This document shows, in pieces, positions 4,347 through 61,937 of a stretch of 64,000 bases of DNA (positions are counted from its first letter, which is position 1; each line of letters starts with the position of its first letter). Source of the stretch: an uncultured bacterium. GTDB taxonomy: Bacteria; Patescibacteriota; Minisyncoccia; UBA6257; GWB1-50-10. The notes beneath the pieces were generated by a model. The model searched no databases and was not told the origin of the DNA. It saw only the letters and a list, made by a program, of their open reading frames with translations. The translations under genes and the position numbers were made by a program. The stretch is from assembly GCA_963713955.1 (NCBI GenBank), contig OY970216.1, positions 506,252 to 570,251 on the forward strand, written 5' to 3'.

Positions 4347-5614
4347 AAAAGTTCCTGCAACTTTTCAAGCTACCTGATTTGAGGAAGAAGGTTTTGAGCG
4401 TTATTTTCCTGCTTTTTGTTTTTAGACTCTTCGCCGCCATACCCATCCCCGGCATCAATCCCGCCGAGCTCCAGCAATTTCTTTCATCCAATCAGCTCTT
4501 CGGATTCTTAAACATCTTCTCCGGCGGAGGGCTCTCTAACCTGTCAATCATGATGCTCGGCGTGAGCCCCTACATAACGGCCACGATCATCATGCAGCTC
4601 CTCACGATAGTTTTTCCTCAACTCAAGAAAATCTACTACGAGGAGGGAGCGCAAGGCCAGGCGAAATTCAACAGGATATCGAGATATATAACGGTACCGC
4701 TCGCAATGCTTCAGGCGTACGGTTTTCTCAATCTCTTGATAGCTCAGAAAGTATTGAGTCATTTGCTTTTCCCCGAACTTATGGCAAACATCCTCGTCGT
4801 AACGGCGGGGAGCGTTTTCCTCATGTGGATAGGCGAATTGATATCCGAATACAAGATAGGCAATGGCGTATCGCTCATCATATTTGCAGGTATCATAAGT
4901 CGCCTTCCCCAAGAGGTGGGAACGATGTTTTTCAATTTCAACCCCGCGATGCTCCCGACATACATCGCGTTCGTGGTTCTCGCCATCATCGTCATCGCCG
5001 GCGTTACATTCATCAATGAAAGCGAAAGGAAAATACCCATTTCCTATGCCAAGCAGGTGAGGGGAATGAAAATGTACGGTGGAGCATCGACATATCTTCC
5101 CCTCAAAGTGAATCAAGCCGGTGTGATACCGATCATATTCGCCATTTCTCTCCTCTTGTTCCCGCAGTTTTTCGCCCAAGCGGCCGCCGTCATCTCGTCA
5201 AATCTATCCCTTACCCTAAACCGCTGGTCGAGTAATTTTTTCAACAACATACCGCTCTACAGCCTGGCTTATTTCGTCCTCGTGGTGCTTTTCACGTATT
5301 TCTACACCGCCATAACGTTCGATCCCGAAGAAATATCGAAAAATCTGCAGCGGAGCGGCGGGTTCATACCCGGTATACGACCGGGCGAAGCGACGACTTC
5401 CACGATCACGAGGATAATTCACCGCATAACCTTGTGGGGAGCTGTTTTTCTGGGGGTTGTGGCCATATTACCGAATATCACCCAGATGGCGACGGGCATA
5501 ACGTCTCTCACGATCGGCGGCACTGCGCTCTTGATCGTCGTCGCCGTCGCGCTTGAGGTGATGAAGGCCGTCGAATCCCAGCTCACCATCAGGGAGTATG
5601 AAGGGATCATGTAA
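4343..5614 (+). CDS. secY: Preprotein translocase subunit SecY
   Basis: 423-aa polytopic membrane protein with conserved SecY segments (LGVSPYITATIIMQLL, GGTALLIVVAVALEVMKAVESQL). Follows L15 as in the spc operon. Confidence 0.95.
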   Translation: MKKFLQLFKLPDLRKKVLSVIFLLFVFRLFAAIPIPGINPAELQQFLSSNQLFGFLNIFSGGGLSNLSIMMLGVSPYITATIIMQLLTIVFPQLKKIYYEEGAQGQAKFNRISRYITVPLAMLQAYGFLNLLIAQKVLSHLLFPELMANILVVTAGSVFLMWIGELISEYKIGNGVSLIIFAGIISRLPQEVGTMFFNFNPAMLPTYIAFVVLAIIVIAGVTFINESERKIPISYAKQVRGMKMYGGASTYLPLKVNQAGVIPIIFAISLLLFPQFFAQAAAVISSNLSLTLNRWSSNFFNNIPLYSLAYFVLVVLFTYFYTAITFDPEEISKNLQRSGGFIPGIRPGEATTSTITRIIHRITLWGAVFLGVVAILPNITQMATGITSLTIGGTALLIVVAVALEVMKAVESQLTIREYEGIM

Positions 5615-5632: not shown

Positions 5633-6319
5633 ATGAATAAAAGTGCTGTCGTCATTTACGGTCCGCCGGGTTCGGGTAAGGGAACTCAAGCCGAACTTTT
5701 GGTGCGACAATACGGTTTTTTCCATTTCGACACCGGCCAATATCTCCGCCGCCTTTTGAACGATCCGCGAAACAAGCACAACAAGGAAATCCAAAAAGAA
5801 AAAAAACTGAATGACGAAGGAACTCTCAATACCCCGGCATTCGTCTTAAAGCGAGTCAAAAAGGAAACGTGCCGGATCGCTCGGATGGATTTGAGCATCG
5901 TCTACAGTGGATCGCCGCGGACGCTTTTCGAGGCTTTCGGCGACACGAAAAATGAAGGCTTGCTCGCCTTGCTGAAAAAAGAATACGGAGCGAAGAACGT
6001 TTTTATCGTCCGGCTTCTTGTGAGCCCCGCCGCTGCCGCCAAACGGAACGCCGGCCGGCTCATGTGCTCGGTTTGCGGCTTACCAATTCTTGCTGCTTCG
6101 CGGGCAAAGAATTGCTCCTTCTGCGGCGCGAGGGCTATGCGGAGGATCGATGACGATCCAAAAGTTTTTGCTCATCGCATCGATCAATATGAGAACCGCA
6201 CGTTTCCTATTTTGGCAAAAGCAGCGAAAGGAGGATACAAAATCAAAAAGGTGAACGGAGAGCCAGCGCCTTATCGCGTTCATAAAACCATAGCCGCGTA
6301 CCTCGAGAAAGCAAGATAA
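5633..6319 (+). CDS. adk: Adenylate kinase with zinc-binding lid
   Basis: P-loop IYGPPGSGKGTQAELL. Lid has CSVCG...CSFCG (C4). Confidence 0.9.
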   Translation: MNKSAVVIYGPPGSGKGTQAELLVRQYGFFHFDTGQYLRRLLNDPRNKHNKEIQKEKKLNDEGTLNTPAFVLKRVKKETCRIARMDLSIVYSGSPRTLFEAFGDTKNEGLLALLKKEYGAKNVFIVRLLVSPAAAAKRNAGRLMCSVCGLPILAASRAKNCSFCGARAMRRIDDDPKVFAHRIDQYENRTFPILAKAAKGGYKIKKVNGEPAPYRVHKTIAAYLEKAR

Positions 6320-7083
6320 TGATTTCTCTCAAAAGCGAGAAAGACATGGACGGCTTGCGCAAGTCGGGAAAAGTTCTCGTCGATATCCTTCTCAATTTGA
6401 AAAAAACCGCCGCAGAAGGAGTGAATCTCTTGAGCTTAGAAAGCAAAGCCCGCGAGATGCTGAAAGAAAGGGGCGCCTCTTCGGCATTCATGAACTACCG
6501 ACCGGAGGGCGCTGGGAAGCTGTATCCGGCTGCTCTCTGCACATCGCTCAATGACCAAATAGTCCACGGGATACCGTCGGATTACGATCTGAAGGAAGGG
6601 GATATTCTGAAGATAGACTTCGGCGTCGTTCTCGGCGGTTACGTGACCGATGCCGCTTTGACCATTGGGATAGGAAACATAAGCGAGAGGGCAAAACTCC
6701 TCATAAAAACGACGGAAGAGGCCTTAAATGAGGGCTTAGCGGCCGCCAGGACCCCGAAAGCAAGGCTGGGGGACGTGGGGTGGGCAATTGAGAACACAGC
6801 CGAGAAAGAAGGCTTCAGCGTCGTTGAGGGACTTACCGGACACGGCGTCGGCTTTAAGCTGCATGAGGACCCGATTGTTTACAACTACGGAAAAAAAGGG
6901 GAGGGGATACTTTTGAAAAAGGGACTGGTTTTGGCTATTGAACCGATGCTCTCCGCCGGCTCACCGCAATCGGTCCAGGCGAAGGACGACAGTTTTTATA
7001 CCAAGGACGGATCGCTCTCGGCTCACTTCGAAAAAACCGTCGCTGTCACGGAAAACGGCATCGAAATCCTGACCACGTTCTAG
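6319..7083 (+). CDS. map: Methionine aminopeptidase type I
   Basis: Pita-bread fold motifs (DILKIDFGVVLGGYVTD, HGVGFKLHEDP, LAIEPMLS). Operon position after adk. Confidence 0.9.
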   Translation: MISLKSEKDMDGLRKSGKVLVDILLNLKKTAAEGVNLLSLESKAREMLKERGASSAFMNYRPEGAGKLYPAALCTSLNDQIVHGIPSDYDLKEGDILKIDFGVVLGGYVTDAALTIGIGNISERAKLLIKTTEEALNEGLAAARTPKARLGDVGWAIENTAEKEGFSVVEGLTGHGVGFKLHEDPIVYNYGKKGEGILLKKGLVLAIEPMLSAGSPQSVQAKDDSFYTKDGSLSAHFEKTVAVTENGIEILTTF

Positions 7084-13064: not shown

Positions 13065-13196
13065 GTTGAAAGCAAATTGCTTTGCTTTCAACGGGCGAAT
13101 ACCTGTGTTAATTTATATATAGTAATTTCGCCCCGGAAGAACGCGTTCCTGATATCTTCGATATAACTGGTTCGCTCGTTCGAAATGAAAAATAAT

Positions 13197-13268
13197 GGGC
13201 ATATAGTTCAGTGGTAGAACGCTGTCCTGATAAGACAGAGGTCCCAGGTTCAATCCCTGGTATGCCCA
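13197..13268 (+). tRNA. tRNA-Ile (anticodon GAU)
   Basis: Manual cloverleaf: GGGCATA/TATGCCC acceptor, GTTC/GAAC D stem, CTGTC-CTGATAA-GACAG anticodon arm, CCAGG-TTCAATC-CCTGG T arm. 72 nt. It is flanked by inverted repeats (..CGAAATGAAAAATAA / TTCTTTTTCATTTCTCG..). Confidence 0.9.
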
Positions 13269-13293
13269 CCCATTCTTTTTCATTTCTCGCTCG

Positions 13294-13341
13294 CTGCCAG
13301 TTATAAGACAGAGGTCGTAGGTTCGATTCCTACCATGCGCA
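13294..13341 (+). other. 3' fragment of the second tRNA-Ile-like sequence (anticodon-loop-like AGTTATAAGACAG, variable AGGTC, T arm GTAGG-TTCGATT-CCTAC, acceptor CATGCGC, A)
   Basis: Pairs perfectly with the 5' fragment at 13047-13053. The middle part (D stem 3' strand and anticodon stem 5' strand) is absent. Confidence 0.5.
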
Positions 13342-13423
13342 CAAGCGAGTGAAATGGAAAAGTATTTTTACATTTCCGAGCGCAGTCGCATGGGAACCGA
13401 AAGGTCACCATACGCACCAATCA

Positions 13424-13495
13424 GGGCCCGTAGTTCAGTGGCAGAACGCCGCTTTTGCAAAGCGGAGGTCAGGAGTCCAATTCTCCTCGGGTCCA
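13424..13495 (+). tRNA. tRNA-Ala (anticodon UGC)
   Basis: GGGCCCG acceptor (with a G3-U70 pair), GTTC/GAAC D stem, CCGCT-TTTGCAA-AGCGG anticodon arm, AGGAG-TCCAATT-CTCCT T arm. 72 nt. Confidence 0.9.
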
Positions 13496-13610
13496 CCTTG
13501 AGTATGTGCTCAACTTGTGTTCGAAAAAGCCTCATGAATACTAGAATTTCTCGGCCAGACCTAGCTTTTCCAAGTTCAAGTCCTCGGGGTATTGATTAAG
13601 AGTAGAAAGT

Positions 13611-17703: not shown

Positions 17704-18375
17704 ATGGGGAGGGGGATAAAACCGCAGGGGAAAGTTAAAATTAAATGGTCTCCTGCATTTGCCTACGTGATCGGGGTTATTACAACCGATGGCAACCTTT
17801 CTATTGATAAAAGACATATCAATATAACATCAAAGGATGAGGAGATGGTTAAAACGGTTGCGAAGTGCATTGATATCAAAAACAAGATTGGTCGTAAAGC
17901 AAGAGGCGGCGAGAAAGAAAAGAAATATTTCGTACTCCAATTCGGCGATGTTTTATTTTATAACTTTCTCCTCTCGATCGGCCTCACGCCGCATAAATCA
18001 AAGACGCTCCGTTCTATCGCCGTGCCTGATAAATACTTCTTCGATTTCTTGCGCGGGCATTTTGACGGTGACGGAACTTTTTATTCCTACTGGGATCTGC
18101 GCTGGAAATCAAGTTTTATGTTCTATACGGAATTTATTTCGGCCAGCAAGGCTCATATTGAATGGTTGCGGGAGAGAATATGCAACATCCTGAAAATACA
18201 CGGCCACATTACAAGAAGTGGGAATAACTCCGTGTATCAATTGAAATATGCCAAGGGGGAGTCATTGAAATTACTGGCTAAAATGTACTACAATAAGGAC
18301 GTAATTTGTTTAAGGAGGAAGAAAGATAAGGTAGAGAAAGCCCTAAAAACAGATTCAAACGCGCGGGTGTCGTAA
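17704..18375 (+). CDS. LAGLIDADG-family homing endonuclease (two-motif, single-chain type)
   Basis: Motif 1 AYVIGVITTDGNLSI and motif 2 FLRGHFDGDGTFYSY. The 3' end (stop 18373-18375) overlaps the first 15 nt of tRNA-Leu. Confidence 0.8.
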   Translation: MGRGIKPQGKVKIKWSPAFAYVIGVITTDGNLSIDKRHINITSKDEEMVKTVAKCIDIKNKIGRKARGGEKEKKYFVLQFGDVLFYNFLLSIGLTPHKSKTLRSIAVPDKYFFDFLRGHFDGDGTFYSYWDLRWKSSFMFYTEFISASKAHIEWLRERICNILKIHGHITRSGNNSVYQLKYAKGESLKLLAKMYYNKDVICLRRKKDKVEKALKTDSNARVS

Positions 18376-18447
18376 CTGGTAGCCGAGCATCCTTGAGGTG
18401 GATGTGCCCGTAAGGGCGTGGAGGTTCGAGTCCTCTCCCGCGCACCA
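18361..18447 (+). tRNA. tRNA-Leu (anticodon GAG), class II with long variable arm, CCA encoded
   Basis: GCGCGGG/CCCGCGC acceptor, 3-bp D stem TCG/CGA, CATCC-TTGAGGT-GGATG anticodon arm, 15-nt variable stem-loop, GGAGG-TTCGAGT-CCTCT T arm, ACCA. Confidence 0.85.
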
Positions 18448-59327: not shown

Positions 59328-59606
59328 ATGTTCTATACCTATATCCTTCTGTGTTCAAGTAGTAAGACACCGAGAAAAATATTCTACGTCGGATCATCCG
59401 ATGACCTGAAAAGAAGATTCGACGAGCATAGAAGAGGTAAGGTGAAAACTACGAAAATATTTGATAAGATATTTTTGGTGTATTACGAAGCTTGCAGGAA
59501 TAAGACCGATGCCAGAAAAAGAGAGTTGCAGCTAAAAACCGGGTTCGGCAGAGGATACATCAACAAAAGGATAGCGACAGATCTAAGTAGGGCGGGATTC
59601 GTATAG
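59328..59606 (+). CDS. GIY-YIG nuclease-family small protein (UPF0213/YhbQ-like)
   Basis: FYTYILLC...YVGSSDDLKRRFDEHRRG is the GIY-YIG motif pair. The stop lies within the 5' acceptor region of the outer tRNA-Gly. Confidence 0.65.
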   Translation: MFYTYILLCSSSKTPRKIFYVGSSDDLKRRFDEHRRGKVKTTKIFDKIFLVYYEACRNKTDARKRELQLKTGFGRGYINKRIATDLSRAGFV

Positions 59607-59630
59607 TGGCAGTACGCTTGCTTCCCAAGC
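59592..59630 (+). tRNA. tRNA-Gly (anticodon CCC) 5' portion of a split gene (positions 1-40)
   Basis: Acceptor GCGGGAT, D stem GTAT/GTAC with loop AGTGGCA, anticodon stem CTTGC, loop TTCCCAA, then GC. The remainder is found at 59774-59805 after a 138-bp insertion. Confidence 0.6.
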
Positions 59631-59768
59631 CCCGTACAATAACAACGATCAAAGTTACTTGCGAGCATGGTTTAGTGGCAGAATGCGACCTTCCCAAGGT
59701 TGAGACGGGGGTTCGATTCCCCCTACTCGCACAAATTATCACAAGCAATCGTTGTTATTGTAACAGGG
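59631..59768 (+). mobile_element. 138-bp MITE-like insertion carrying a complete tRNA-Gly(CCC). Terminal inverted repeats CCCGTACAATAACAACGAT / ATCGTTGTTATTGTAACAGGG. A 5-bp direct repeat CAAGC flanks it (59626-59630 and 59769-59773)
   Basis: The TIRs abut the direct repeats exactly. Removing the element and one CAAGC copy restores a canonical tRNA-Gly cloverleaf. Confidence 0.55.
59661..59731 (+). tRNA. tRNA-Gly (anticodon CCC), inner copy carried by the insertion
   Basis: GCGAGCA/TACTCGC acceptor (one C-A mismatch), GTTT/GAAT D stem (wobbles), CGACC-TTCCCAA-GGTTG anticodon arm, GGGGG-TTCGATT-CCCCC T arm. 71 nt. Its sequence is unrelated to the outer copy outside conserved positions. Confidence 0.65.
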
Positions 59769-59773
59769 CAAGC

Positions 59774-59805
59774 AAGACGCACCGGTTCGATCCCGGTATC
59801 CCGCA
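59774..59805 (+). tRNA. tRNA-Gly (CCC) 3' portion of the split gene (AAG completing the anticodon stem, variable ACGC, T arm ACCGG-TTCGATC-CCGGT, acceptor ATCCCGC, discriminator A)
   Basis: All four stems of the joined outer tRNA are perfectly Watson-Crick or G-U paired. Confidence 0.6.
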
Positions 59806-59830: not shown

Positions 59831-60316
59831 ATGAACGATCTAGATTTACTGAAGCGAGATTTACTATTGGAAACACAAAGGTGTATAGATCTTTTTAATT
59901 CCCAAGTTTTCACTAACCATCAAATTTTCACCCAATCCGCTTTTATCGAAATTTTGATCCGTTTAAATGACATCCTCCAAGTGTTAAGCGAAAAGAGTAG
60001 CAGGATAATCTGGCGAGACGATGTCCAAATTAACGACCGCATCAAGGATATCACAGACTTGGTAAATAATTTACGTAACGCTGCTTGTCACATTGATAGT
60101 CCAGAAAACTACATAAGCAATTCTAAGGTGAAGTTTGTTTTCAATACTTTTACTGGAAAATGCCCAAACGCATTTGAGATTGGAGAGAATATTTCGTTAG
60201 GCAACGAATACGAAGATGATGCAGCTTTTTATTATGGAGATAAAAGGATTTATCTAAGCAGACATATTAAACGACTCTTAGAGGAATTACCCGACAAAAT
60301 TAAAAATCTAGGATAA
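59831..60316 (+). CDS. AT-rich hypothetical protein with HEPN-like Rx4H motif (possible Abi/toxin-type RNase)
   Basis: 161 aa. LRNAACHIDSPEN contains R-x4-H. Strongly AT-rich relative to its surroundings. Adjacent to an XRE regulator and an IS element. Confidence 0.35.
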   Translation: MNDLDLLKRDLLLETQRCIDLFNSQVFTNHQIFTQSAFIEILIRLNDILQVLSEKSSRIIWRDDVQINDRIKDITDLVNNLRNAACHIDSPENYISNSKVKFVFNTFTGKCPNAFEIGENISLGNEYEDDAAFYYGDKRIYLSRHIKRLLEELPDKIKNLG

Positions 60317-60498
60317 GTTTCCTTCTTCCACCGTTCCTTATTTTATCAACTTGCTCTTGAAAAAAGTTCTAACGTCATTCACTAGGGTTGTTGACTATAT
60401 AGTCCACCTCTGAAAAGAGGTGATATTTCTTATTCAAAACTAGTATTAGGCTAGTAATCCCTGTCTAAATTGCTTCTCCCGTCAACTTTACCCTCCTT

Positions 60499-60783
60499 AT
60501 GGACATGCCTCATGGTCCGTACCATGATCGTATGGACTATCAAAGATATAGGAGCATACCCAACAAGCTCAGAGATTACCGTAAAGCCAGGAATCTAACT
60601 CAGGAACAGGTAGCCTCAGCCCTCAACCTCAAGAACAAAACCCTCATAGCGAGATGGGAGAGACAAAGGTCTATACCAAATCTCATTACTGCCTTCCGGC
60701 TTTCTGCTCTGTATCAGGTTTCGGTGGATGAACTGTTCCATGAAACAGCAGACAAAGTCAGGGAGGAGATAAAAAGGGGATAA
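60499..60783 (+). CDS. XRE-family helix-turn-helix transcriptional regulator
   Basis: LRDYRKARNLTQEQVASALNLKNKTLIARWERQRSIPNLITAFRLSALYQVSVDELF, the HTH_3/Cro-C1 pattern. Confidence 0.6.
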   Translation: MDMPHGPYHDRMDYQRYRSIPNKLRDYRKARNLTQEQVASALNLKNKTLIARWERQRSIPNLITAFRLSALYQVSVDELFHETADKVREEIKRG

Positions 60784-60873
60784 GCGCCTCCAACCTTTCA
60801 GATCATGCCGTAGCCGATTGGCCTGACCCCCATATATTAGACACAAAGGTCGAAGTCAATATACCCTTGTGTC

Positions 60874-61131
60874 ATGAAGAAAACATATCGCACCGCTCCC
60901 GAGGTGAAGGAGCAGATATTGAAGAGAATCAAGGAGGAAGGGATCCCGGTCGTCCAGGCCGCCAAGGAACACGGTCTGAATCCCGCCACCATATACAACT
61001 GGCTGGGAAGGGGCGTGAAAGGCACCCCCACGATCGGTGAACTCGTCCGCCTCAAGCGCCAGAACGAAGAGCTCCTCGCCCTCGTGGGCGAGCTCACCCT
61101 GGCCTCCTCACGCACTCAAAAAAAGCGTTGA
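60874..61131 (+). CDS. IS3-family transposase OrfA (HTH)
   Basis: YRTAPEVKEQILKRIKEEGIPVVQAAKEHGLNPATIYNWL, leucine-zipper-like C-terminus. Confidence 0.75.
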   Translation: MKKTYRTAPEVKEQILKRIKEEGIPVVQAAKEHGLNPATIYNWLGRGVKGTPTIGELVRLKRQNEELLALVGELTLASSRTQKKR

Positions 61132-61937
61132 TCAAAAAGCAGAAGAAGACGAAGTGGGAACTTGCCCGTGAACTCGGCCTCTCCCGCGCCTCCCTCTACT
61201 ATGTCTCGAAACAATCGCCCAAGGATTGGTCGCTCAAGGAAAGGATCATATCAGTCTTGAGAGACCATCCTTCATACGGCTTCAGAAGAGTGGCTTTGGA
61301 GCTCAAGATCAACAAAAAAAGAGCCCAACGGGTGATGAGGCTCTTCGGGATGAAGGCATATCGGAGAAGGGGCAGAAGGCCAAGGAAAACGGGCTTCTCG
61401 AGTATCCTGTATCCCAATCTCCTTCAGAAGAACTTCCCCAAAGGATTGAACGATATCTGGGTGGCGGACTTCACGTACATCCCGTACCAAGGGAAGTTCC
61501 TGTATCTCGCCACCGTGATGGATTTGTTTGCGAGGGAGATCGTGGGCTGGGCCGTGATGAATACCCACTCGGTGCCTCTGGTCCTCCAGGCACTCTTCTC
61601 CGCGGCGGAACATCATCCGAGACCCAACATCTTCCACTCGGACAACGGAAGGGAGTATGGCTCAAGGATCTTCACCGGAGCTCTTTTGAACCTCGGCGTC
61701 AGGATATCGAGATCGAGGAAGTCATCGCCATGGGAGAACGGCTACCAGGAGTCCTTCTACTCCCAGTTCAAGGTGGATCTGGGCGATCCGGAGAGGTTCA
61801 AATCGCTGGGAGAGCTGGTCTACGAGATCCATCGCCTGGTCTGGGACTACAACCACCGGAGAATCCACTCCGCCCTCAGGATGCCGCCTGCACTGTTCTC
61901 GAATCGCTACCAGAAACTTGTCGAAAAAGTGTCTTAA
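61128..61937 (+). CDS. IS3-family transposase OrfB (DDE integrase core), expressed as an OrfAB fusion by -1 frameshift
   Basis: DIWVADFTYIP (D), HSDNGREY (D), SSPWENGYQESFYSQFK (E), the rve integrase core. It is in the -1 frame relative to orfA. Confidence 0.8.
   Translation: MIKKQKKTKWELARELGLSRASLYYVSKQSPKDWSLKERIISVLRDHPSYGFRRVALELKINKKRAQRVMRLFGMKAYRRRGRRPRKTGFSSILYPNLLQKNFPKGLNDIWVADFTYIPYQGKFLYLATVMDLFAREIVGWAVMNTHSVPLVLQALFSAAEHHPRPNIFHSDNGREYGSRIFTGALLNLGVRISRSRKSSPWENGYQESFYSQFKVDLGDPERFKSLGELVYEIHRLVWDYNHRRIHSALRMPPALFSNRYQKLVEKVS

Follow-up and report, generated by a model that had tools for sequence, protein, structure and literature searches.

Several described systems come close to the arrangement reported here. 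In bacterial rRNA genes, intervening sequences are hairpin insertions that RNase III excises, leaving the ends unligated. Miniature inverted-repeat transposable elements (MITEs) are small, non-coding and bounded by terminal inverted repeats, homing introns, inteins and tRNA-integrating elements are selfish DNAs that occupy a conserved site in a conserved gene and leave the host unharmed, and the anticodon loop and the T loop are said, in work by Williams from 2002, to be the sub-sites preferred by tRNA-targeting integrases. In archaeal disrupted tRNAs, the two halves are separated by sequence whose ends pair beside the anticodon stem. Among candidate phyla radiation (CPR) bacteria, rRNA genes contain short insertions that lack open reading frames (ORFs), are not introns and may be RNase III intervening sequences (PMC11270868), while Patescibacteria carry group I introns at position 35/36 of tRNA-Asn and tRNA-Asp, a report that includes neither tRNA-Gly nor nesting (PMC13011429). 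Lastly, insertion by elements of the IS91 family creates no true target duplication, a 5'-CTTG or 5'-GTTC target lying beside one end of an element whose other end closes with a tetranucleotide of its own (PMC13181058). Here we describe a tRNA-Gly(CCC) gene nested within a second tRNA-Gly(CCC) gene in an uncultured bacterium of the Patescibacteriota (GTDB lineage Minisyncoccia; UBA6257; GWB1-50-10). The nest lies in a 64,000-nucleotide stretch of GenBank assembly GCA_963713955.1 (contig OY970216.1, positions 506,252 to 570,251 of the forward strand), hereafter the window, and was first noticed in an earlier reading of these letters alone (the original prediction). Searches of the literature on nested, interrupted and mobile tRNAs in these bacteria, the coverage of which is incomplete, gave only the group I intron and rRNA insertion work cited above and no description of tRNA genes nested in tRNA genes, in line with the original prediction, which knew of none for bacteria, and the nest belongs to a widespread, apparently undescribed family.

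The data set out below are best explained, with a probability that we place at about 0.62, by a hairpin-armed, non-autonomous tRNA cassette that inserts site-specifically into the anticodon loop of the gene for its own isoacceptor and replaces that gene, the outer tRNA-Gly(CCC) of the window being a recent relic. All coordinates of the nest as originally predicted are borne out in the sequence (Table 1). When the outer halves (59592-59630 and 59774-59805) are joined, ARAGORN calls a 71-nt tRNA-Gly(ccc) with its anticodon CCC at 59624-59626, 21 of 21 stem pairs and a cloverleaf as its minimum-energy fold, the perfect cloverleaf that had been foreseen. In place, Rfam and ARAGORN call only the inner tRNA-Gly(CCC) at the nest, and the intron mode of ARAGORN misses the outer gene. 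The stretch between the two CAAGC copies (59631-59768) likewise comprises the 138 bp described earlier, with inverted ends of 19 and 21 nt (59631-59649 and 59748-59768) around a complete tRNA. The flanking repeat, first given as 5 bp, is present, but the junctions typical of the family make it 4 nt and its fifth base a chance match: the last C of the left copy (59630) doubles as the first C of the family-typical CCCC arm end, which sets the insert at 59630-59768, or 139 bp, with no ORF inside.

The arms of the window element form a helix of 19 Watson-Crick pairs with one C.A mismatch and one bulged A, and their perfect 15-nt core (59635-59649 and 59748-59762) occurs twice in the window against 0.05 occurrences expected from shuffles. 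The motif AAGCA directly 5' of the right arm is common to the window, L058, L059, L011 and L015 (loci from other genomes are designated by L and a number). The inner tRNA has an acceptor stem of GCGAGCA/TACTCGC with a C6.A67 mismatch and discriminator A73, and scores 60.9 bits with Rfam RF00005 against a threshold of 29. Its stems had been described as unrelated in sequence to the outer gene, a statement that does not hold, as the two tRNAs, both intact, are alike at 46 of 71 positions and differ at 25. Folded as a single 214-nt unit (-79.8 kcal/mol, z = -5.4 against shuffles), the locus retains the outer acceptor, D and T arms and has a long helix in place of the anticodon loop, the one bulge at the junction, 5 nt long (CCCAA), being on the 5' strand. 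Since a separately deposited ENA contig (ERZ25039477 contig_142200, 12.5 kb) is 100% identical across 1201 nt, the nest is not a mis-assembly. A scan for promoters and terminators around the window locus gave nothing above chance level.

The nest is situated at the native lepA-divIC-tRNA-Gly(CCC) locus, with LepA, DivIC and a DUF4012 protein encoded upstream, and in other genomes too DivIC and LepA are the commonest neighbours of nested tRNAs (22 and 20 loci). The best hits of LepA (identity 70-78%) belong to Patescibacteria that carry the labels Minisyncoccia, Jorgensenbacteria or Paceibacterota, and the gene order in relatives is glycosyltransferases, DUF4012, LepA, DivIC and tRNA-Gly(CCC). 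Nine relatives were chosen via LepA alone, making the sample blind to the state of the tRNA. Five of the nine (L005, L069, L070, L073 and L074) carry an uninterrupted tRNA-Gly(CCC), the empty site for which the original prediction had proposed a search; the tRNA of L073 is of the window's outer type and identical to the inner tRNA of L008, and that of L005 is a mosaic composed of the window's outer acceptor stem and inner-type arms. In three relatives (L003, L071 and L072) an intact tRNA is followed by an orphan 3' half. In L003 and L072 this half comes after a right arm with GGGG at its end, then CAAG or CAAAG. None of the three loci retains the matching 5' half, which suggests that the upstream remnant is lost first. 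The remaining relative, L008, is nested with the types swapped: its decayed outer gene is of the common resident type, and its intact inner gene, lying between different arms (CCGGGTAGTG...), is of the window's outer type. Because of this 5/3/1 split, empty, filled and leftover states coexist among close relatives, and the history of the window is most simply read as a series of replacements.

Similar arrangements are found well beyond these relatives. A pattern scan of one genome per species, which sought the tRNA-Gly(CCC) anticodon loop followed within 12-40 nt by a tRNA-Gly-like start, picked out 57 stretches. Named Patescibacteria, of many classes, account for 40 of them and unnamed bacteria for 7; the 10 that bear other labels mostly resemble chance matches or tandem remnants. 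A gap of 12-40 nt is mostly too short for ordinary tandem genes, and by our own arithmetic a few matches would be expected by chance. About 25 elements have paired arms, and in 13 species the outer halves still join into a tRNA recognized by ARAGORN. Family A, to which the window belongs, comprises about 20 species with junctions of the form TTCCCAAG/CCCC...GGGG/CAAG (slashes mark the junctions) and arms of 13-22 bp; the TTCCCAAG/CCCC junction is constant across 19 members, and CAAG is present at both junctions in at least 17. In family B (8 species; L025, L027, L041, L056, L038, L054, L066 and L012), the arms, 11-14 nt long, continue straight on from the inner acceptor stem, and a conserved 12-bp hairpin, mostly with a T-CCC-A loop, stands directly 5' of TTCCCAAG and replaces the 5' strand of the outer anticodon stem. 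This hairpin covaries across species (GCAT/ATGC, GTAT/ATAC, GCAC/GTGC), as do the outer acceptor and T stems. In a T-loop family (L035, L037, L047 and L057; also L053 and L050) the insertion lies between positions 56 and 57, with junctions GGTTC/CCTGCCCG...GGCAGGCGGG/GATTC, tRNA-Gly(CCC) as cargo and no flanking repeat; the T-loop site of L050 holds a 20-nt palindrome alone, without cargo.

Nests may be deeper than that of the window. In Candidatus Falkowbacteria (VMTK01000019.1; L010, 7383-7860, minus strand) three tRNA-Gly(CCC) are nested in Russian-doll fashion, each level between CCCCGCACCAAA...TTTGGTGCGGGG arms and CAAG repeats, and all three are valid tRNAs after in-silico excision. Four successive 5' halves surround one intact tRNA in L012 (minus strand, about 5960-6530 in the locus), repeated 3' halves surround one intact tRNA in L054, L038 is likewise an array, and L051 (18-130) consists of serial units that are nearly identical. 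The arrays of L012, L051, L038 and L054 look like partly collapsed or duplicated nests, and the near identity of the L051 units suggests a cassette that may have re-invaded its own cargo. Nesting is not confined to glycine, since in L036 (4690-4960, minus strand) a tRNA-Thr(CGT) lies within the D loop (after CTTG) of a second tRNA-Thr(CGT). Its arms, CCCCGCCAAATTTT / AAAATTTGGCGGGG, are of the CCCC...GGGG type and the flanking repeat is at most 2 nt; a composite palindrome of 74 nt also interrupts the outer gene between its D and anticodon stems, and without both inserts that gene is a valid tRNA. Both nested identities, Gly CCC and Thr CGT, are C34 isoacceptors, the codons of which are, by general decoding rules, also readable by the U34 isoacceptor. 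A GC-rich, arm-only palindrome, CCTGCCTGCCGGCAGGCAGG, recurs with its variants in outer tRNA copies, where it lies between positions 31 and 32, within the D loop or within the acceptor strand, and also turns up in a small number of places outside tRNA genes (Table 1); it may represent a small hairpin element of Patescibacteria.

The same cassette is found within different outer genes. The cassettes of the window and L058 are identical at 121 of 140 positions, with inner tRNAs identical at 67 of 72 and sharing the C6.A67 mismatch, and the outer genes differ right at the junction (CTTGC versus CGACC); the host of L058 (LepA 64% identity) is more distant than relatives that lack the cassette. The further copies for which the original prediction proposed a search are present as the near-identical L058 cassette and as the same architecture in many genomes, but not within the window. 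Identical 20-nt arms enclose different cargo within different outer genes in L019 as compared with L046 and L023, L010 contains two cassettes with similar arms and different tRNAs, and the outer halves of L059 derive from different tRNAs. Nests would collapse through recombination between similar arms at successive levels, which would explain these combinations as well as the mixed halves of L059. A local error of replication or repair, in which a tRNA was duplicated into its own anticodon loop and the copies then diverged, would account for inner and outer genes that are always the same isoacceptor, the tRNA-Thr(CGT) pair of L036 included, and for the almost identical successive units of L051. 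We nevertheless regard such a rearrangement as very improbable, given that the window tRNAs differ at 25 of 71 positions with both intact, that the arms are not tRNA-derived and their ends are conserved across many classes, that the same arms hold different cargo (L019 versus L046; two L010 levels) and that the same cargo lies in different outer genes (window and L058).

Conservation within the arms follows a distinct pattern. In the 22 helices of family A, C:G is invariant at positions 1-4, position 5 has G:C or C:G, and each of positions 6-20 shows 2-4 Watson-Crick pair types with very few mismatches. Among the 25 elements of families A and B, 401 of 422 arm pairs are Watson-Crick, the others being 6 G.T, 11 A.C and 4 other mismatches, and extra bases occur 13 times in the right arm and twice in the left. 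Complementarity and the asymmetric bulge are conserved, and the interior sequence is not. There is no excess of G.U over A.C (6 versus 11, small numbers) such as a constraint on RNA only would yield. Because pairing persists beside the badly decayed outer genes of L013, L044 and L049, something maintains the arms; they could help the inner tRNA to mature, or serve a mechanism that acts on folded DNA.

Comparison with the described systems reveals both similarities and differences. Firstly, the cassette resembles a MITE in being small and non-coding, in its terminal inverted repeats (20/21 nt, 19 Watson-Crick pairs) with conserved tips (positions 1-4 invariant C:G family-wide) and, in this sub-family, in a short direct repeat at its junctions. 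However, the arm occurs at this site alone in the 64-kb window, every copy in the 57 loci lies in the tRNA locus and no transposase recurs nearby; its cargo is a complete tRNA gene, it nests recursively in that cargo, the same isoacceptor gene is the sole target seen, with one copy per genome rather than many dispersed ones, its arm interiors are free in sequence yet complementary, and a sister sub-family lacks the flanking repeat. We know of no autonomous parent element for the nested cassettes. Secondly, it shares with rRNA intervening sequences the insertion of a hairpin into a structured-RNA loop, a patchy distribution that suggests horizontal spread, an arm helix of about 20 bp, or about two helical turns, within the anticodon loop, which is of sufficient length for RNase III, and the occurrence of arm-only palindromes at tRNA loop positions in related genomes. 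It differs in that the cut would lie in the anticodon loop, where function of the host tRNA after simple excision is implausible; the insertion therefore carries a replacement gene. Thirdly, where homing and integrative elements preserve function by splicing or by partial duplication of the target, the nest does so through a whole second gene, and its 139-bp insert encodes no endonuclease or integrase. A tRNA-targeting integrative element was rejected on the grounds that the insert lacks an ORF, the repeat is merely 4-5 nt and the IS3 element nearby is separate. Although one possible junction of the nest corresponds to the canonical 37/38 position of archaeal disrupted tRNAs, the nest is bacterial, has no bulge-helix-bulge, contains a complete tRNA of the same identity and often has decayed outer copies. 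Finally, the junctions recall IS91 targets (CTTG/CCCC antisense in the anticodon-loop family, CTTG/CCCC in the L036 tRNA-Thr, GTTC/CCTGCC in the T-loop family); the nest ends, however, pair with each other and not within subterminal hairpins of their own, no transposase has turned up, and in size the elements fall far short of the ends of about 80-90 bp in mini-IS91 constructs, so that the match is a resemblance only and not membership.

The sequences themselves show the anatomy, the family, the empty and leftover sites and the presence of one cassette in different outer genes; from them we infer the direction of insertion, the working copy and the processing of the RNA. In the window, a complete tRNA-Gly(CCC) would have been inserted, together with its short linkers and two arms (20 and 21 nt), at CAAG (positions 36-39) of the resident tRNA-Gly(CCC) downstream of lepA-divIC, as part of a Patescibacteria-wide cassette family predicted to target the same site in the same isoacceptor gene. 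Since the cassette brings its own copy of the gene, decoding would be preserved. The inner tRNA would turn into the working gene and the next target, giving rise to nests of two to four levels, and the outer halves would become a relic, decay and later be deleted; as the outer gene of the window is still perfect, its insertion is probably recent. In the transcript, the arms are predicted to pair into a stem, about 20 bp in length, by which the outer halves are kept together, and the inner pre-tRNA, on single-stranded linkers, would be open to RNase P and 3' processing, possibly after the stem is cut by RNase III. The cassette might be moved by an enzyme of the HUH or tyrosine type working on folded single-stranded DNA, or by recombination following DNA uptake. 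The comparative data support the original prediction in so far as it saw an inserted cassette, flanked by inverted arms, whose tRNA cargo takes the place of the interrupted gene. Cut-and-paste movement with target-site duplication, proposed at the same time, is not established in view of the T-loop sub-family without a repeat, the lack of a linked transposase and the single copy in the window; CAAG could represent a target duplication of 4 bp, or else its right copy could be part of the element.

The quality of the two gene copies is consistent with such replacement. Inner tRNAs are intact throughout, with 21 of 21 stem pairs in 23 of 25 cases and 20 of 21 in the window and L058. Outer copies of family A reach 21 of 21 in 9 of 18 cases and fall as low as 9 of 21, with defects that include mutated T loops, G1 changed to T, lost 5' halves and hairpin insertions; decayed, truncated or mixed halves are present in L013, L020, L045, L049, L059 and L008. 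Outer decay and orphan halves together fit a cycle of insertion, outer decay, deletion and re-invasion.

Several observations weigh against a mobile cassette with a dispensable outer gene. Half of the outer copies are pristine. Between L023 and L046 the flanks share 71% identity, yet just 3 of 71 positions differ in the outer halves, and the terminal arm pair has changed from C:G to T:A in compensated fashion on both sides. Four family-B species with flanks 65-72% identical have differing outer acceptor and T stems that still pair; selection on the outer parts accounts for this no less well than repeated recent insertion would. No case of transposition out of a distant donor copy has been observed directly, and no filled/empty polymorphism was seen at the population level. 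The window contains a single copy, with no convincing further copy of the arms or of the CCTGCCTGCC palindrome in its 64 kb, and every copy across the 57 loci sits in the tRNA locus. Clustering of 627 ORFs from the loci revealed recurrence of only DivIC, LepA and ABC/FtsX-like proteins, with no recombinase or transposase. The CAAG repeat need not be a target duplication, as the T-loop sub-family lacks it, and a metagenome scan for window-type arms produced one match, which by its sample name and length is apparently the same contig as L059. No match to the nested cassette was found among viral contigs, so no phage carrier is seen. Two accounts are compatible with these data: insertion may be frequent and recent, or in some lineages selection may act on the outer parts.

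The absence of a linked transposase and the restriction to single copies at the native locus would be expected if no dedicated enzyme were involved and DNA taken up from outside recombined through the tRNA halves as homology arms, in a homing-like gene conversion, the nest itself having arisen once or a few times. The mosaic tRNAs of the locus (L005; the outer halves of L059) would follow from the same process, and Saccharibacteria are reported to be naturally competent (PMC10187176). We consider this unlikely, because the near-identical cassettes of the window and L058 share the 8-nt loop alone as homology at the junction, because there would be no drive without a nuclease that cuts uninterrupted alleles, and because the invariant CCCC/GGGG ends and the arm-only palindromes at tRNA loop positions would go unexplained.

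The pristine outer copies bear on the intervening sequence, or helix-tethered split tRNA, that the original prediction had offered as a second reading. Here the whole unit would be transcribed, RNase P and a 3' nuclease would free the inner tRNA, and ligation or the helix would then unite the outer halves, leaving two functional glycine tRNAs or tRNA-like RNAs per locus. Such an arrangement would accommodate the flawless outer gene of the window and 9 of 18 family-A copies, the near constancy and compensated arm change of L023 and L046, and the outer acceptors of family B (GCGGAAT, GCGAGTA, GCGGTCG and GCGAGCG), each of which pairs with its own 3' strand and keeps G1-C72, C2-G71 and G3-C70; tRNA introns are also abundant in Patescibacteria (PMC13011429). 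We find it unlikely and not supported, on several grounds. Rfam at E values up to 10 detects the tRNA alone, with no group I or other ribozyme signal, in an insert of 138-143 nt that is mostly tRNA. Self-splicing group I introns are well above that size, and a group I intron was rejected. A bulge-helix-bulge intron was likewise rejected: the minimum-energy fold has no 3-nt/4-bp/3-nt motif, and a motif drawn by hand works partly for GCAC-type arms but fails for the window and for CCCCCACACC-type arms, where it would break the CCCC/GGGG helix. The other half of the outer copies is decayed, truncated or mixed, as listed above, in relatives orphan 3' halves are all that is left, the levels of a multi-level nest cannot all function, the anticodon stem of family-B outer copies has no 5' strand, and arm mismatches show no G.U excess over A.C. 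Moreover, an anticodon loop bearing a 20-bp helix could not decode, given established ribosome geometry. A related and tentative proposal, improbable in our view, is that in at least some lineages the nested unit would be a designed precursor. Once the inner tRNA is released, the acceptor stem and the arm helix would keep hold of the outer halves, which a protein-based bacterial pathway would splice or which would persist as a two-piece, glycine-accepting tRNA-like RNA with a non-decoding role. Functional outer halves would explain the compensatory changes in acceptor stem, T stem and extra hairpin among species whose flanks are 65-72% identical.

If confirmed, a cassette that hits a conserved tRNA site while supplying a spare gene would constitute an unrecognised lifestyle of selfish DNA in minimal genomes, would explain the fast turnover and mosaicism of Patescibacteria tRNA-Gly(CCC) genes, and would provide a sequence marker for horizontal exchange among uncultured bacteria. 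tRNA annotation overlooks interrupted genes and leftover halves of the kind described here. The CCCC/GGGG tips, the arm-only palindromes and the nesting point to a site-specific activity that could become a tool with a short, universal target. Some nested types are labelled 'Candidatus Saccharibacteria' in public records. Saccharibacteria are reported to be naturally competent (PMC10187176) and genetically tractable, and because of these labels the nest idea may be experimentally testable.

Table 1. Coordinates of the nested tRNA-Gly(CCC) element, of leftover halves and palindromes at other loci, and of neighbouring features in the window
Feature	Position	Strand	Remarks
Outer tRNA-Gly(CCC), 5' part	59592..59629	+	Acceptor GCGGGAT, D arm, anticodon stem CTTGC, loop TTCCCAA, G39
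Left direct repeat CAAG(C)	59626..59630	+	CAAG = tRNA positions 36-39
Left arm CCCCGTACAATAACAACGAT	59630..59649	+	Pairs with 59748-59768
5' linker (leader) of inner tRNA, CAAAGTTACTT	59650..59660	+	Unpaired
Inner tRNA-Gly(CCC)	59661..59731	+	ARAGORN and Rfam; probably the working gene
3' linker (trailer), CAAATTATCACAAGCA	59732..59747	+	Unpaired
Right arm ATCGTTGTTATTGTAACAGGG	59748..59768	+	Extra A near outer end, typical of the sub-family
Right direct repeat CAAG(C)	59769..59773	+	Provides outer tRNA positions 36-40
Outer tRNA-Gly(CCC), remaining 3' part	59774..59805	+	AAG, variable ACGC, T arm ACCGG-TTCGATC-CCGGT, acceptor ATCCCGC, A73
Orphan 3' halves	L003 7374-7448; L071 about 5192-5255; L072 4793-4865		Just downstream of intact gene
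CCTGCCTGCCGGCAGGCAGG-type palindromes in outer copies	L008/L014, L018, L021, L028, L033, L039, L043, L063, L064		
CCTGCCTGCCGGCAGGCAGG-type palindromes, a few non-tRNA places	L021 80 and 1611; L040 4586		
GIY-YIG ORF, 103 aa	59295..59606	+	Pfam PF01541 at 3.8e-13; wedged between divIC and tRNA
161-aa ORF	in 59831-61937 block		No family (Pfam, NCBIfam, PADLOC)
HTH_3 protein	in 59831-61937 block		Weak RmrA / control-protein matches in PADLOC
IS3 element	orfA 60874-61131; orfB 61128-61937		

The window locus is an insertion hotspot. The stop codon of the GIY-YIG ORF lies inside the outer D arm, and the ORF has a weak match, under the cut-off, to TIGR01453 (group I intron endonucleases; E 2.7e-4). 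In relatives the tRNA directly adjoins divIC with no GIY-YIG gene there, and the gene is therefore a separate insertion, probably a neighbour and not part of the element. A role as homing enzyme was considered and rejected, homologues being detected by tblastn in 3 of the 57 loci, kilobases from the tRNA, and missing at the loci of relatives; a link of the gene to the nest is not supported, as these homologues are not associated with nested tRNAs elsewhere. Downstream of the tRNA, the block at 59831-61937 is an addition in the window lineage that is missing from relatives. Its 161-aa ORF, earlier labelled HEPN-like, does not bear out that label, and the IS3 element that it also contains is separate from the nest and not linked to it.

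Elsewhere in the window, tRNA-Ile(GAT) and tRNA-Ala(TGC) lie 150 nt apart at 13196-13497, a spacing as in an rRNA spacer, yet Rfam detects no rRNA anywhere in the 64 kb. A tRNA-Leu(GAG) at 18361-18447 is called by ARAGORN, under the Rfam gathering score.

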